From Enterobacter phage ZX14: a stretch of DNA of 64,000 nucleotides. Of this stretch, positions 8,919 to 37,638 are shown in pieces. Made by a program: the position numbers and the translations under genes. The notes below the pieces were generated by a model. The model searched no databases. It was not told where the DNA came from and saw nothing but the letters and a program-made list of their open reading frames with translations. Location of the stretch: the sequence record PP236086.1; one strand, 5' to 3'. The first letter of the stretch is position 1; every line of letters starts with the position of its first letter.

Positions 8919-9336
8919 ACCCGCCCTAGATACCCGAAAGGGCTCCCATTTCTGAGAACCCTTTCGAATCGGCGCTGTACGTAGTCGCACCTAGAGGTAC
9001 CATTCGCCTTACGGTTTCATTTGCGATATCCACCGTCGTTCGTTTAAGTTGATTTGTCATAGGGCTCGAACCTACACGCTTAGGTCTGTCGCACCGGTTT
9101 CCGCCTTACTCACCTGGGTACCAACCAGGGTTTCAAACAAGCTATTCCAGTCGTGTCTACCAAATTTCACCACACAAATCATAAATTATACGGAACGCCG
9201 GGGCATGCACCCGGTTATAAAGCAGTTGACGCTACTCTATATTTTTAAGAGGCGAGCATCTCGACCATATCCGAACGTTTCGTCAAAAACGCTACTCGGC
9301 TTACGGCAAAGATGGGTCCTCGAACCGTTTGTTTAG

Positions 9337-9410
9337 AGGCGGGTGATGGACTCGAACCATCGCATATCGGGATATGAACCCGACCTTCTACCAACTGAAT
9401 GTAACCCGCA
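9337..9410 (-). tRNA. tRNA-Met (anticodon CAT), initiator-like
   Basis: Hand-folded cloverleaf: T-arm GATGG-TTCGAGT-CCATC and anticodon arm TCGGG-TTCATAT-CCCGA. The anticodon stem has three consecutive G-C pairs and the 1-72 position is unpaired, both initiator hallmarks. CCA is not encoded. Confidence 0.5.
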
Positions 9411-9674
9411 TTTGTCCGGGTCCAGAGAGTACTAATAAGTAGGCTGTAGTAGAACCCATTGACTAGAATCAATGAGGGAACATGAACCTTTAGCCCCGGC
9501 ATTATCTTATGGACTTCAAACTCTTCTCTCTAGACTGCCTCGTATTATTGCGCCCATCTTGCTGTGGCATTAGACCATGAAGCATTACCGAAATCGCCTG
9601 ATTACGTTAATGTCTGGGTGCTATCCAGGGAACAGAGCTTGGACGGCTTTCCATATCGTCATATGGATTTCTGT

Positions 9675-9750
9675 TGGGGTGACCTGTGGGACTTGAACCC
9701 ACGACTACAAGAATCACAATCTTGAATTCTACCAACTGAATTAAGGCCAC
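9675..9750 (-). tRNA. tRNA-His (anticodon GTG)
   Basis: 76-nt cloverleaf: acceptor GTGGCCT/AGGTCAC, D-arm ATTC-AGTTGGTA-GAAT, anticodon loop TTGTGAT, T-arm GTGGG-TTCAAGT-CCCAC. CCA is encoded. Confidence 0.6.
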
Positions 9751-9785
9751 ATCAATATTCACTCGTAAATGAATATTAATTTGGC

Positions 9786-9856
9786 TAGGGTATCAGGACT
9801 CGAACCTGAGCATAATGGGATCAAAACCCACTGCCTTACCAACTTGGCTATACCCT
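9786..9856 (-). tRNA. tRNA-Gln (anticodon TTG)
   Basis: Acceptor AGGGTAT/ATACCCT, anticodon loop TTTTGAT, T-arm CAGG-TTCGAGT-CCTG. Confidence 0.55.
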
Positions 9857-9863
9857 ATTTAAC

Positions 9864-9947
9864 TGGCGGTTAGTGCAGGTATCGATACCTGCCTTGTCCT
9901 AAGACACGGATTAACAGTCCGTCGCTTCCCCTCTCAGCCAACTAACC
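9864..9947 (-). tRNA. atypical tRNA with Asn anticodon GTT but a long (about 13 nt) variable arm and an 8-nt T-loop
   Basis: Perfect 7-bp acceptor GGTTAGT/ACTAACC with G73 and encoded CCA. The anticodon arm ACGGA-CTGTTAA-TCCGT matches E. coli tRNA-Asn. The D-arm is Ser-like (TGGCTGAGAGGGGAAGC), the variable arm is GTCTTAGGACAAG, and the T-arm GCAGG-TATCGATA-CCTGC is palindromic. Confidence 0.45.
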
Positions 9948-9953
9948 GGAATT

Positions 9954-10032
9954 TGGTGGTTGTGCCTGGAATCGAACCAGGGTTCCTAAATTTAACTAAA
10001 GGGCGCTTATGCCTGCTTGGCGCGACACAACC
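9954..10032 (-). tRNA. tRNA-like gene, anticodon probably TAA (Leu) but atypical
   Basis: Acceptor GGTTGTG/CACAACC with A73 and CCA, and T-arm CCTGG-TTCGATT-CCAGG. The D-loop is long (13 nt). The anticodon stem CTTTA/TTAGG has a T-T mismatch and the loop is GTTAAAT. Confidence 0.4.
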
Positions 10033-10038
10033 TGAATT

Positions 10039-10114
10039 TGGTGGGTCTGGATGGACTCGAACCATCGACACCCGCATTAAAAGTGCGGTGCTCTACCAAC
10101 TAAGCTACAAACCC
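10039..10114 (-). tRNA. tRNA-Lys (anticodon TTT)
   Basis: 76-nt cloverleaf: acceptor GGGTTTG/CAGACCC, D-arm GCTT-AGTTGGTA-GAGC, anticodon arm CCGCA-CTTTTAA-TGCGG, T-arm GATGG-TTCGAGT-CCATC. CCA is encoded. Confidence 0.65.
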
Positions 10115-10196
10115 ATATTACTGTTCTTTAGTCGAGCCGACTTGTCCGTATTCTTTCAACGGTGAGCTGATAGCTGTAACAGTAATACTCTAAATT

Positions 10197-10284
10197 TGGT
10201 GGGGAGTGATGGAGTCGAACCACCCGAGTCGCAATGACAACAGATTTACAGTCTGCACCGCTACCTCTACGGAATTAACTCCCC
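10197..10284 (-). tRNA. tRNA-Tyr (anticodon GTA), class II with long variable arm
   Basis: Acceptor GGGGAGT/ACTCCCC with A73 and CCA, anticodon loop CTGTAAA, long variable arm, T-loop TTCGACT. Confidence 0.55.
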
Positions 10285-10297
10285 GTGATACTTTTAT

Positions 10298-10540
10298 TTA
10301 TTCAGTATATCTCTTGAACTGTAAAGCAAAATCTTCATCAACCTTAGTCAAGAAGTGTCCTGCCTTAAATCGTTTAGAGCTACCTTCAACTTCTACACCG
10401 TAACCGTTCTTACCAAGGACTCGACCAACTCGCATTTCACCAGGGTCACCCATTGAATTACAACGAACACCATATAGAACAAAATCATTTTCGAACACCG
10501 GAGTTTGTTTCCGATCTTTAATTAATTCTATCATATTCAC
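10298..10540 (-). CDS. hypothetical protein (80 aa) embedded in the tRNA cluster
   Basis: ORF abutting the NADAR gene (ATGA overlap). Confidence 0.45.
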   Translation of the reverse strand: MNMIELIKDRKQTPVFENDFVLYGVRCNSMGDPGEMRVGRVLGKNGYGVEVEGSSKRFKAGHFLTKVDEDFALQFKRYTE

Positions 10541-10541
10541 C

Positions 10542-10997
10542 TTAAAGCATATTACGTTTTAAGTTTTCACGAACTCGATAAAGGTTTGAACAGAATTCCT
10601 GTTCGGTTAGAACGGTTTCATTCTTTTTCGACTTGCCCATCGAGTGAGTTAATGTAGAGTTCTGTGTAGCCAGAAGTGCTCTCTTGAACCCTTCATTACG
10701 TCCTAATTCATTATATGCACGTTCAATAAGAAGTCTGTAGGCGTCACTCTGACGTTGCATAGGCACACCTTTCCAGTACAGGGTTTGAGTACGCCACCAC
10801 TTCTTTTTCTTACCTTTGAACTTAGCTGCTTTACCAACTAGAGTACAAACATGTTCTTGCATTTCGACTGAACTAAATTTCAGTGATTGCAAAAATCCTT
10901 CCATCGAAGCACATTCTACACCATCAATTGTAAAAGCATGAGGTGCAAAATTACTTAATGCAGATGAAGGATAACCTGAACCTGAACCAATATCCAT
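10542..10997 (-). CDS. NADAR / YbiA-like (DUF1768) domain protein
   Basis: 151 aa with SNFAPHAF...GVECASMEGFLQSLKF...KFKGKKKK...YWKGV...RLLIERAYNELG...LLAT, matching the NADAR signature pattern (FSNF..H.F.....Y.S.E...Q..KF). Confidence 0.5.
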   Translation of the reverse strand: MDIGSGSGYPSSALSNFAPHAFTIDGVECASMEGFLQSLKFSSVEMQEHVCTLVGKAAKFKGKKKKWWRTQTLYWKGVPMQRQSDAYRLLIERAYNELGRNEGFKRALLATQNSTLTHSMGKSKKNETVLTEQEFCSNLYRVRENLKRNML

Positions 10998-11209
10998 TAT
11001 TCATTTTCCTTTTCAAGAAGGAACATATACATATCGTCATGGTCTTGCATAACGTTTTCAAATTGTGATTCGTATTCAGCCAATGGTGCAGAACCAAGCC
11101 AGTTAGCACATTGAATACGTAAGTCGCCATTAGCGCCTTGATAAATCAAAGCTTCAGAATATCCACCTGAAGCCCATTCGATAATTGCATGTCCTAAACG
11201 ATATTTCAT
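10997..11209 (-). CDS. hypothetical protein (71 aa)
   Basis: Start is taken at MKYRLGH with a GAGGAAAATATA SD. The first Met in the ORF track (11254) would overlap the tRNA-Arg gene. Confidence 0.45.
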   Translation of the reverse strand: MKYRLGHAIIEWASGGYSEALIYQGANGDLRIQCANWLGSAPLAEYESQFENVMQDHDDMYMFLLEKENE

Positions 11210-11227
11210 TATATTTTCCTCAGTGTC

Positions 11228-11304
11228 TGGTGTCCCCTGATGGATTCGAACCATCGACCCACAGCTTAGAAGGCTGTTGCTCTATCCGGCTGAGCTAAGA
11301 GGAC
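11228..11304 (-). tRNA. tRNA-Arg (anticodon TCT)
   Basis: 77-nt cloverleaf: acceptor GTCCTCT/AGGGGAC, D-arm GCTC-AGCCGGATA-GAGC, anticodon arm ACAGC-CTTCTAA-GCTGT, T-arm GATGG-TTCGAAT-CCATC. CCA is encoded. T4 carries an Arg(UCU) tRNA at the equivalent position. Confidence 0.7.
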
Positions 11305-11308
11305 GAAA

Positions 11309-11385
11309 TGGTGGCCCTTCTGGGAGTCTAACCCAGCTTACACCGGTTATGAGCCGGGTACTTTCACGCGACAGTACAAAGGGCC
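11309..11385 (-). tRNA. tRNA with CAT anticodon (Ile2-lysidine type or elongator Met)
   Basis: Perfect acceptor GGCCCTT/AAGGGCC with CCA, D-arm TACT/AGTA, anticodon loop CTCATAA. The T-arm is CTGGG-TTAGACT-CCCAG, i.e. an unusual A56. Confidence 0.5.
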
Positions 11386-11394
11386 TGAATAATT

Positions 11395-11479
11395 TGGTGC
11401 ACCGAGTGGGACTTGAACCCACAATCCATAAGGCGTATCATTTTAAGTGATATATGTATACCAATTCCATCATCGGTGC
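11395..11479 (-). tRNA. tRNA-Leu (anticodon TAA), class II
   Basis: Acceptor GCACCGA/TCGGTGC with A73 and CCA, anticodon arm TATCA-CTTAAAA-TGATA, long variable arm, T-arm GTGGG-TTCAAGT-CCCAC. T4 tRNA-Leu likewise carries UAA. Confidence 0.6.
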
Positions 11480-29684: not shown

Positions 29685-31258
29685 TGACTACTAATACAAT
29701 ACGTCACGTCAGTGACGAATCAGTATACAAAATTTTTAAACCCGCAGGAACCGCATTTCCTTCTAATATCACAAACGTTCAGGCTGCCTTAGCAGCCTTG
29801 AACCCTATTGCGATTAATGGCATCCCTAATGCAACACAAACTGTTGTAGGGATAAGTCGATTTGCGTCTCAGGCGGAGGTAGATAGCGGCACTCTTAACA
29901 ACGTTAGTGTTTCTCCAGCAACATTAAAGTCCGCCATCCTGCGTCCACCTGCAACGACTACAGTAGCGGGTCTTACTAGATATGCTACTACTTCGGAAGC
30001 CTTAGCAGGAACAGTAGGTGATGCTGCGGTGGTTCCTACAGGACTTAAAGCTTCTGTTGATGCAGCAAAAACACAAATTCTTTCTACCCAAGCCACTGAA
30101 CTAGTTATGGGTCTGGCTAAAATATCTACACAAGCTGCTGCTTTAGCAGGTGCAGATGATTTAACTATAATGACCCCTAAAAAAGTTGCGCTAGCTATTG
30201 GTAAAGCTATTGCGACCGTTCCGTCATATTCTAACGCGTCTGAAACAAATTATGGCTTAGTTAGAATGGCTACTGCCGGTGAAGTTCAGGCAGGTAACGT
30301 TGGTAACGCGGTTGCAATATCCCCAGCAAATTTAAAAACTTTAATTTCTACTACTTCGAGAAATGGTTTAATTTCTATTGCTTCTGGTGCTGAAGTCGCT
30401 GCTGGTACTAATAATACCAAAGCTATTACTCCAGCTGCATTATTATCTAGAACAGGTAATGAAAGTAGAACAGGTCTTCTTAAAACAACTCGAACTGTTG
30501 GTTCAGGTGATGGAAGCACTGCATTAGCGTATAATGCGAATGTTATTTCAACCCAAGGCAACCAATCTATTAATGGTGGATTGACTCTTACGGGTCTTCA
30601 GATTAATGGGCAGGCTAATATAACATCAAATACGACAATTGGCGGTAATTTAACTGTATCAGGCGGGATTACTTCTAGAGGACAACAAGTTGTTACTATC
30701 GATATGATAGGTGACGACGTTCCTGTAGGTGTTATTGTTATGTGGATTGGTGCTGCAAATAAGGTCCCAGCCAAATGGCGTATTTGTGATGGTGGATATA
30801 CTTATTCTGCATCTTCAAACCCGGCTCTGTGGAATGTTTTACCTACCGGGCGTGTTCCTGATATGAGGGGTTTATTTGTTCGTGGTGCTGGTGTTGGCGC
30901 TGATATTCTTAATGCCCGATCGCCTGATAGTAAAGGTAAACCAGGTCTTGGTGTAGGTTGTGGTGCTGGTGCGGTTGGTACAGTTCAAGCTCAAGCTGTT
31001 AAGAAACACAAACACAACAGTGGATGGGGTGAACATAATAGAAAATCCGACGCATATTTCGGTTCTACTATGATAAACGGTAAACGTGGTAGTAATAGAA
31101 CAGATAGTGATAACTGGCTGTATTTCACTAATGACGGCGAAGAGACTGAACCGGAAAATATCCGAGATTCATTCGGAACAATGAACCCTAAAGACCTTAT
31201 GCAAGACGAAAACCGTCCTTGGAACATCGCAGTATATTATATCATCAAAATCCAATAA
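29684..31258 (+). CDS. 12: gp12 short tail fibre
   Basis: 524 aa (T4 527 aa). Ala/Thr-rich repeats and a C-terminal receptor-binding domain with CDGG and HKHN motifs. Confidence 0.8.
   Translation: MTTNTIRHVSDESVYKIFKPAGTAFPSNITNVQAALAALNPIAINGIPNATQTVVGISRFASQAEVDSGTLNNVSVSPATLKSAILRPPATTTVAGLTRYATTSEALAGTVGDAAVVPTGLKASVDAAKTQILSTQATELVMGLAKISTQAAALAGADDLTIMTPKKVALAIGKAIATVPSYSNASETNYGLVRMATAGEVQAGNVGNAVAISPANLKTLISTTSRNGLISIASGAEVAAGTNNTKAITPAALLSRTGNESRTGLLKTTRTVGSGDGSTALAYNANVISTQGNQSINGGLTLTGLQINGQANITSNTTIGGNLTVSGGITSRGQQVVTIDMIGDDVPVGVIVMWIGAANKVPAKWRICDGGYTYSASSNPALWNVLPTGRVPDMRGLFVRGAGVGADILNARSPDSKGKPGLGVGCGAGAVGTVQAQAVKKHKHNSGWGEHNRKSDAYFGSTMINGKRGSNRTDSDNWLYFTNDGEETEPENIRDSFGTMNPKDLMQDENRPWNIAVYYIIKIQ

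Positions 31259-35318: not shown

Positions 35319-37638
<2,320 letters not shown>

Follow-up and report, generated by a model that had tools for sequence, protein, structure and literature searches.

By the textbook rules, long variable arms are limited in bacteria to the tRNAs for serine, leucine, tyrosine and selenocysteine, and the aminoacyl-tRNA synthetases use this arm to tell the tRNA classes apart. What, then, is a gene that joins a long arm to the anticodon of asparagine? Such a gene lies on the minus strand, at positions 9864-9947, of a 64,000-nucleotide stretch of Enterobacter phage ZX14 (record PP236086.1), the whole of which is called hereafter the window. A previous inspection of the letters alone (the sequence-only reading) had described it as a chimera of an Asn anticodon arm and a Ser-like class-II scaffold, and had proposed three ways to understand it: an unusual tRNA-Asn, a tRNA charged with serine that decodes AAU/AAC as Ser, or a degenerate gene. 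The explanation that we prefer, with a probability of about 0.7, is that the gene is a phage-encoded tRNA-Asn of a distinct and conserved long-arm lineage. The element in the window would be a new and probably defective allele of this lineage, which is widespread, class-II-shaped and apparently undescribed.

Read on the minus strand from 9947 down to 9864, the gene is GGUUAGU-UG-GCUG-AGAGGGG-AAGC-G-ACGGA-CUGUUAA-UCCGU-GUCUUAGGACAAG-GCAGG-UAUCGAUA-CCUGC-ACUAACC-G-CCA, with the following parts:

9864-9947, minus strand: putative long-arm tRNA-Asn(GUU) gene with encoded CCA, 84 nt, from the sequence and from the RF00005 match at 9867-9947
9941-9947, minus strand: 5' strand of the acceptor, GGUUAGU, paired with ACUAACC at 9868-9874 (G1:C72, G2:C71, U3:A70)
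between acceptor and D-stem, minus strand: U8 and G9
9924-9938, minus strand: D-arm with G10-C25, C11-G24, U12-A23, then G13.A22, and a 7-nt loop AGAGGGG
9906-9922, minus strand: anticodon arm ACGGA-CUGUUAA-UCCGU, anticodon GUU at 9913-9915
9893-9905, minus strand: extra (variable) arm GUC-UUAG-GAC and unpaired AAG tail, 13 nt, from the minimum free energy (MFE) hairpin and the covariation in the family
9875-9892, minus strand: T-arm GCAGG-UAUCGAUA-CCUGC, a perfect palindrome of 18 nt whose loop has 8 nt
9886, minus strand: A inserted between T54 and psi55 of the T-loop, private to the window copy
9867, minus strand: discriminator G73
9864-9866, minus strand: encoded CCA

The features that had first drawn attention to the gene, i.e. 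the GUU anticodon, G73, the 3-bp D-stem, the 13-nt variable stem-loop and the aberrant 8-nt T-loop within its palindrome, are all confirmed. A tRNA is of class II when its variable region exceeds 10 nt and forms a stem-loop (PMC7609411); here 13 nt form a 3-bp stem with a 4-nt loop. The Rfam model RF00005 matches the gene over its full length (model positions 1-71) with 42.4 bits (gathering threshold 29; E=1.2e-5 over the 64-kb window), treating 10 of the 13 nucleotides of the variable region as an insertion and finding one extra base in the T-loop. An alternative register with a normal 5-nt variable loop was not obtained: the extra hairpin persists in the covariance model as well as in the MFE fold. 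ARAGORN calls seven other tRNAs of the cluster (9336-11479, minus strand) and leaves the long-arm gene uncalled. At the locus no overlapping open reading frame (ORF) and no promoter or terminator signal stands above chance.

The gene is far from isolated. We define the long-arm family by GUU, G73, a host-type anticodon arm and a 13-15-nt hairpin with a 3-nt tail, within a phage tRNA cluster; the window gene has all of these and aligns throughout with 14 other distinct members. BLAST of the 87-nt region gives matches in 603 phage records, and in 222 of these the match spans 80% of the gene or more. Klebsiella Marfavirus phages, F48 and BM7 among them, match the window gene at 98.8% identity, and further carriers are Jiaodavirus (KpV477, JD18), Karamvirus CC31, Mosugukvirus PM2, Winklervirus CHI14, the jumbo phage Munch, phAPEC8-like phages and T5-like phages; the version of the T5-like phage AKFV33 occurs in 291 records. 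Overall, a long-arm Asn gene is present in roughly 500 records, of T4-like, T5-like, phAPEC8-like and jumbo phages. Where annotated, these genes are named "tRNA-Asn", with 81-86 nt. Pattern scans added 29 viral contigs and 21 metagenome contigs. With a strict pattern the family seemed absent from cellular genomes, a statement that a relaxed pattern overturned: among 21 loci in cellular assemblies, about 12 long-arm Asn genes are called by ARAGORN, in Flavobacteriales, Bacteriovoracales, Betaproteobacteria, Actinomycetes (isolates of Agromyces and Micromonospora), Methyloprofundus, Bacilli and two archaeal metagenome-assembled genomes (MAGs), mostly in dense tRNA arrays of 7-26 tRNAs per 8 kb. 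Hundreds of homologues rule out a unique chimera or an assembly artefact. The idea of a one-off chimera is thus abandoned, the gene being one allele of a large conserved family; that of an unusual tRNA-Asn, with class-II-type arm, GUU and G73, gains support.

The conservation concerns the structure itself. In 15 distinct sequences, the window included, 99.7% of the base-pair cells are paired, with double-sided changes at 10 of the 24 pairs. In 18 intact and more diverse members pairing reaches 100% of the cells, against 32-46% when the partners are slid, and compensatory changes affect 14 of the 24 pairs, including two of the four of the extra arm; these values were reached by none of 500 shuffles. 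The search patterns had, however, fixed the anticodon arm and a portion of the T-arm. All seven acceptor pairs covary across the family, and C11:G24 is invariant (18/18 members). The variable region folds by itself into a 3-5-bp hairpin in 28 of 30 long-arm Asn genes, mostly with a GNRA-like tetraloop followed by 2-4 (commonly 3) unpaired bases. The window gene is a real structured RNA, and its cloverleaf, extra arm included, is under selection. We found no description of this architecture in the full texts open to search without subscription, including reviews on tRNA identity, non-canonical tRNAs and tRNA arrays; the genes are known to databases as tRNA-Asn, their architecture being apparently undiscussed.

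Which amino acid would such a tRNA carry? In bacteria the Asn identity consists of the GUU anticodon and G73, and can be transplanted into the body of tRNA-Lys (PMC9976931, Giege and Eriani). The window gene presents the elements read by the asparaginyl-tRNA synthetase (AsnRS) of E. coli, i.e. G34, U35 and U36 in a CUGUUAA loop, and G73. In the family GUU is invariant, G73 is found in 29 of 30 long-arm Asn genes, and the anticodon arms are 88-100% identical to that of E. coli tRNA-Asn (whose reference sequence was verified at 100% in 5,425 genomes); for the window gene the two arms are the same at positions 28-43 (16/17 nt). Another bacterial mark of tRNA-Asn is U1:A72, for GatCAB (PMC9976931). 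It is present in most environmental and array members, many of which also have C2:G71, whereas the window gene and the other members from enterobacterial phages have G1:C72. This pair U1:A72 is unneeded in hosts that contain AsnRS, such as Enterobacteriaceae. The identity of tRNA-Tyr (A73 and GUA, with U35 as a major element) does not apply, the window gene having G73 and U at position 36; besides, G73 is an antideterminant against TyrRS and LeuRS (PMC9976931; TyrRS in its Table 3).

The locus points in the same direction. The window belongs to a T4-like myovirus, whose closest relatives, the Kanagawavirus Enterobacter phages Q7622 and IME523 and also CIP9, are about 93-95% identical to it over the tRNA cluster. 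Between their tRNA-Lys and tRNA-Gln genes, Q7622 and IME523 have a slot occupied by one ordinary tRNA-Asn(GUU) of 73-76 nt; in the window the same slot, of about 181 nt, contains the long-arm gene and an upstream tRNA-like element at 9954-10032. Likewise among T5-like phages, T5 has a class-I Asn gene of 78 nt where AKFV33 has the long-arm gene, with an identical 3' flank. The long-arm gene is the sole Asn tRNA in AKFV33 (among 24 tRNAs, of which two tRNA-Ser and one tRNA-Tyr), in CC31 (8 tRNAs) and in a metagenomic array locus, L049 (19 tRNAs). In enterobacterial phages it would thus stand in, at the same locus, for the ordinary phage tRNA-Asn. With the class-I tRNA-Asn(GUU) (E. coli asnT-W, Q7622, IME523) it shares GUU, G73, the anticodon arm 28-43, A37 after U36, a 7-bp acceptor, a 5-bp T stem and presumably the synthetase; it differs by the hairpin of 13-15 nt instead of a 4-5-nt loop, by the 3-bp D-stem with G13.A22, by G1:C72 for U1:A72 in the enterobacterial-phage subgroup and, in the window copy, by the 8-nt T-loop.

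GUU with G73, the host-like anticodon arm, the swap at the locus, U1:A72 in distant members and the Tyr-sized arm therefore favour a plain Asn identity over the decoding of AAU/AAC as Ser, and predominant charging with Asn appears likely from this comparison. In the mechanism that we propose, a 13-15-nt hairpin (3-4-bp stem, usually a GNRA-type tetraloop, three unpaired bases) replaces the usual 4-5-nt variable loop; transcription of the intact members most likely takes place within the phage tRNA cluster, and after processing the host AsnRS would charge them with Asn through GUU and G73, so that they read AAC/AAU during infection.

Several points nevertheless weigh against this explanation or against a defect of the window copy. 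The class-II shape, G73, G1:C72, G2:C71, C11:G24 and the Ser-like D-arm are compatible with some recognition by the seryl-tRNA synthetase (SerRS). Class IIb synthetases approach the tRNA from the side of the variable loop, and the long arm might hinder AsnRS. In three arrays (L075 of a Flavobacteriales MAG, L087 of Agromyces humi and L089 of a Methyloprofundus MAG) a class-I tRNA-Asn lies beside the long-arm gene, which hints that the two designs are not always simply interchangeable; they may there differ in role. The effect of the 8-nt T-loop, discussed below, is one that we infer, and a sequencing error behind the extra A is formally possible, though the change does not resemble a homopolymer error. 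Finally, the only experimental data on rescue concern T5's own tRNA-Asn, which is of class I (PMC12409363).

Could the host SerRS then charge these tRNAs, partly or mainly, inserting Ser at AAC/AAU by deliberate or tolerated mistranslation? A tRNA-Tyr has reportedly been turned into a Ser acceptor by a small insertion in the variable stem together with G9 and G73. The Ser identity is independent of the anticodon and lies mainly in the variable arm and the tertiary shape, with a contribution of G73, G1:C72 and G2:C71 (PMC9976931, PMC7609411). These three elements are present in the window gene, the pairs being common to many tRNAs and weakly diagnostic; the enterobacterial-phage subgroup possesses them all and C11:G24 in addition, and its D region is 80% identical to that of E. 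coli tRNA-Ser(GCU), compared with 58-63% for tRNA-Asn and 55% for tRNA-Tyr (in the other family members the value for tRNA-Ser(GCU) is 55-65%). The coexistence of both Asn designs in the three arrays also agrees with a separate role of this kind. The likeness to bacterial tRNA-Ser (E. coli serV, phage Ser genes) stops however at these features and the class-II outline. The window arm has 13 nt, a 3-bp stem and three unpaired 3' bases, a Tyr-like geometry kept in the family (13-15 nt, 3-4 bp), whereas the 21-nt arm of E. coli tRNA-Ser(GCU) has a stem of some 6 bp, flanked on either side by a single unpaired base, and the phages' own tRNA-Ser, which have GGAAG acceptors, mostly have arms of 19-23 nt. 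The length of the arm and its unpaired bases serve for discrimination, and C2:G71, which distant members combine with U1:A72, is an antideterminant against E. coli SerRS (PMC9976931). A3:U70 and the GGAAG acceptor are missing; the host-identical Asn anticodon arm is strongly conserved, though SerRS would not need it; and near-identical genomes have an ordinary tRNA-Asn in place of the gene, without any indication of recoding. A serine or dual identity is on this balance very unlikely, and substantial serylation would be improbable as well.

The scaffold is therefore to be called Ser-like with restriction: the resemblance of the D-arm to tRNA-Ser(GCU) stands for the subgroup, while the arm is Tyr-sized and the D-arm is unlike that of the phages' own tRNA-Ser. 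A derivation from the latter was considered and is not supported: among the tRNAs of the phages, tRNA-Cys and tRNA-Phe have the D-arms nearest to that of the family, and the identity of the whole scaffold is generic, 0.62-0.78 for all isotypes. Set against host tRNAs, the scaffold is a mosaic in which the anticodon arm resembles Asn, the extra arm and the T-arm resemble Tyr and the D-arm, in the subgroup only, resembles Ser. Any ancestry drawn from sequences this short is tentative. One might propose that the arm is historical baggage, a Tyr-like class-II ancestor having changed GUA to GUU and A73 to G73 and AsnRS tolerating an arm without function. The anticodon loops of tRNA-Tyr and tRNA-Asn are indeed one base apart (CUGUAAA and CUGUUAA); the extra arm matches that of E. 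coli tRNA-Tyr (tyrT/tyrU), CGUCAUCGACUUC, by its 13 nt, its GUC/GAC 3-bp stem and its three unpaired 3' bases; the T-arm is nearer to E. coli tRNA-Tyr (0.76-1.00 for most members) than to Asn or Ser; the 3-bp D-stem is shared; and the window's own tRNA-Tyr-like gene carries the arm UGUCAUUGCGACUCG. On the other hand the window gene differs from tRNA-Tyr by G73, by U36 instead of A36, by its anticodon stem, which is that of the host tRNA-Asn, and by the lack of an unpaired base 5' of the arm; the D-arm is nearer to Ser, Cys or Phe; and the whole scaffold is no more similar to phage Tyr tRNAs than to other isotypes (0.67-0.78 for all). The length and the hairpin of the arm are tightly conserved, with compensatory changes in very distant members, a pattern that speaks for selection and against drift. 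The lineage may reasonably be supposed to have arisen when a tRNA-Tyr took on the Asn anticodon (GUA to GUU, A73 to G73), and a mere relic is a doubtful account of the arm.

A somewhat better, still tentative, account is immune evasion, which is compatible with an Asn identity and concerns only why the arm exists: the shape of the body might escape PARIS AriB, colicin-E5-like or other anticodon nucleases, or make the tRNA a decoy. PARIS AriB has a biologically relevant target in E. coli tRNA-Asn(GUU), which it cleaves at 40|41, and it also reads elements beyond the anticodon arm, e.g. U16/U17 of the D-loop; a phage tRNA-Asn helps to neutralise PARIS (PMC12409363). The long-arm type is devoid of U16/U17 and retains the host-type anticodon arm that AsnRS, Tgt and the t6A enzymes need. 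Moreover, at least four designs of tRNA-Asn occupy equivalent loci, as expected of diversifying selection: a host-like class I (Q7622), a class I with C33 and a recoded stem (Kosakonia phage 305, PEi20), a class I with a mismatched stem (T5) and the long-arm type. As the latter keeps the exact sequence of the host cleavage site, UAAUC|C, any escape must come from the body. In this it departs from the known evaders, the T5 tRNAs for Lys, Thr and Asn opposed to PARIS AriB and the variants of the anticodon loop, which are likewise phage copies of nuclease-targeted tRNAs differing markedly from those of the host, but are changed in the anticodon stem-loop or nearby (PMC12409363; PMC10264068). Against evasion stands the presence of the same design in tRNA arrays of very diverse taxa.

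Two phage genes that might have informed on evasion do not. The tRNA-Asn of T5 that rescues from PARIS, being a 78-nt class-I tRNA, is not functional evidence for the family. This gene (L044, 6953-7030) has the non-pairs G27.A43 and U30.U40 in its anticodon stem, one of them at the position of AriB cleavage, and a UUGUUAA loop; the adjoining "rna3" is annotated as a putative tRNA-like RNA. We also observe that the class-I tRNA-Asn of Kosakonia phage 305 (L003, 414-486) and Edwardsiella phage PEi20 (L004, 414-486) have a CCGUUAA loop, with C33 at a position where U is near-universal in tRNAs, and a fully recoded anticodon stem, GUCGC/GUGAU; these changes fit a nuclease-evading variation of the anticodon loop. 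The second gene is that of Bas34 (SelmaRatti), the sole phage with a long-arm copy among those tried against PARIS, whose own tRNA-Asn gives no protection from PARIS, so that T5 tRNA-Asn is needed in trans (PMC12409363). This gene (L070, 2599-2681), annotated as a 77-nt tRNA-Asn, is a long-arm member with U32 and with a deletion of 3 nt in the 3' acceptor strand; it has three non-pairs, scores 41.1 bits and is uncalled by ARAGORN. The PARIS sensitivity of Bas34 may be due to this damage, and the deletion makes the phage uninformative as a test of the long arm. From its sequence the Bas34 copy is probably non-functional, having decayed independently of the window copy.

As to the window copy, it equals the BM7/L018 gene (83 nt when trimmed) plus the single A at 9886, which changes GGUUCGAUACC into GGUAUCGAUACC. 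The extra A is absent from the 14 other distinct sequences of phage genomes and viral contigs compared, and from all 21 metagenome matches (0/21), obtained with a pattern permitting an additional base; the arm that bears the insertion has no exact match in viral contigs. Instead of the canonical 7-nt T-loop (T54-psi55-C56-R57-A58-N-N), found in every other distinct sequence of the family (about 30 in all), the window gene has an 8-nt loop, UAUCGAUA. The Rfam score falls from 52.0 bits for the intact BM7/L018-type gene to 42.4, a loss of about 10 bits, and it is because of this insertion that ARAGORN misses the gene. In the MFE fold the palindrome of the T-arm becomes a 7-bp stem with a UCGA tetraloop. 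The insertion should disturb the elbow formed by T54-A58, psi55-G18 and C56-G19, favouring the extended 7-bp hairpin.

We propose that a Marfavirus-like phage was the probable source of the gene, which would have arrived as a cassette and gained the insertion afterwards. The change of TT to TAT is not of the homopolymer type, so that a real and recent mutation is most likely; being private to the window copy, it probably makes this copy a hypomorph or a young pseudogene; and since the tRNA content varies freely among close relatives, where neighbouring tRNAs come and go, a loss of the gene would be tolerated. That the copy is fully functional despite its T-loop, or that the A stems from sequencing or assembly, is rather unlikely. 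Certainly the 42.4 bits still exceed the 29-bit threshold, all helices are intact, the CCA and the flanks are normal, and this gene is the sole Asn tRNA in the cluster of the window phage; however, the extra base falls between T54 and psi55, in the core of the T-loop/D-loop elbow, and costs both the 10 bits and the ARAGORN call, in a family otherwise uniform at this loop. The suggestion of a degenerate gene is thus supported in a precise form, an intact Marfavirus-type gene plus one A, and the copy probably functions poorly, if it is not already a young pseudogene.

Natural tRNAs with long arms and anticodons other than Ser, Leu or Tyr are known in the allo-tRNAs and the selC* tRNA-Cys (Mukai et al. 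2017, PMC5389517; PMC7609411). Like the long-arm family they were mined from sequences, often lie in unusual genomic contexts and oppose identity to anticodon. They have however 8/4 or 9/3 acceptor/T stems and the identity elements of Ser or Ala, whereas the long-arm family has the canonical 7/5 arrangement, a short Tyr-like arm and the complete AsnRS identity set.

Other unusual tRNAs were met in the genomes compared. The 87-nt tRNA-Asn of Azoarcus sp. L1K30 (L090, 114-200) owes its extra length to a tandem duplication, CCGTAGGTCATCCGTAGGTC, that covers the variable loop and the 3' end of the anticodon stem; its variable region was lengthened in another way, and it has no relation to the hairpin-arm family. 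Conversely, tRNA-Leu(UAA/UAG) genes of class-I shape (77 nt, 5-nt variable loop, A73) occur in the T5-like contigs L017, L022, L030, L033 and L036, and in AKFV33 at 30369-30445 and 35426-35502. Phage tRNAs thus break the class I/class II rule both ways. Near the tRNA region, a 144-aa "tRNA amidotransferase" is annotated in T5 (L044, 14618-15052) and AKFV33 (L066, 16563-16997).

In the window itself, the neighbourhood of the long-arm gene holds further elements, all on the minus strand. The one directly upstream, 9954-10032, is tRNA-like and called by no tool. It has a 7-bp acceptor GGUUGUG/CACAACC, A73, CCA, a perfect T-arm CCUGG-UUCGAUU-CCAGG and a D-stem GCGC/GCGC with a 13-nt D-loop; its variable region has only 3 nt and its anticodon arm is weak (possible loop GUUAAAU, anticodon UAA). 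It folds with a z-score of -2.6, and Rfam gives no more than a weak hit, in the tRNA/tmRNA clan (20.7 bits). Apart from the generic T-arm, no homologue was found in 50,697 phage records or in the viral contigs, and no convincing alignment made it a decayed relative of the tRNA-Ile or tRNA-Lys found ahead of the long-arm gene in other phages. The element is thus a tRNA in decay or else a tRNA-like RNA of a novel kind. At 10200-10284 lies the tRNA-Tyr(GUA)-like gene, with an unusual D-arm, which scores 39.1 bits in a focused Rfam scan while being missed by ARAGORN and by the Rfam gathering run on the whole window; its counterpart in IME523 is annotated "tRNA-Pseudo-GTA", and T5 tRNA-Tyr has the same variable arm as the window gene at 10200-10284, UGUCAUUGCGACUCG. 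A second tRNA-Met(CAU), at 11312-11385 (35 bits), has two non-standard pairs, one in the D stem and one in the anticodon stem, and an odd D-loop, CUGUCGCGUGAAAG; it could be of the tRNA-Ile2 type or an otherwise unusual CAU tRNA. The gap of about 260 nt between tRNA-His and tRNA-Met, 9411-9674, contains no tRNA and ORFs of at most 53 aa; comparable gaps in T4-type tRNA clusters hold small stable RNAs.

For the window gene, probably an ordinary damaged member of its family, the practical point is the annotation: it is best entered as a probable defective allele. The family has a wider meaning: hundreds of phage genomes, and the tRNA arrays of distant bacterial phyla, contain a tRNA that has the Asn anticodon and a conserved, covarying extra arm. 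If AsnRS charges it, then a class IIb enzyme tolerates a class-II body, and the question becomes why phages keep the arm, the host tRNA-Asn being a known target of defence nucleases, PARIS among them. A bolder proposal, which we regard as improbable from the sequences at hand, is that the intact long-arm genes, carried by hundreds of virulent enterobacterial phages and by mobile tRNA arrays across bacteria, are dual-identity adaptors for SerRS and AsnRS. A less radical one takes the arm for a shape-based countermeasure, through which a tRNA with the anticodon arm of the host might escape nucleases that cleave tRNA-Asn. Should SerRS charge the long-arm tRNA as well, viruses would be spreading a natural tRNA that mistranslates; and were the dual identity true, infection would bring a programmed Asn-to-Ser ambiguity at AAC/AAU codons.

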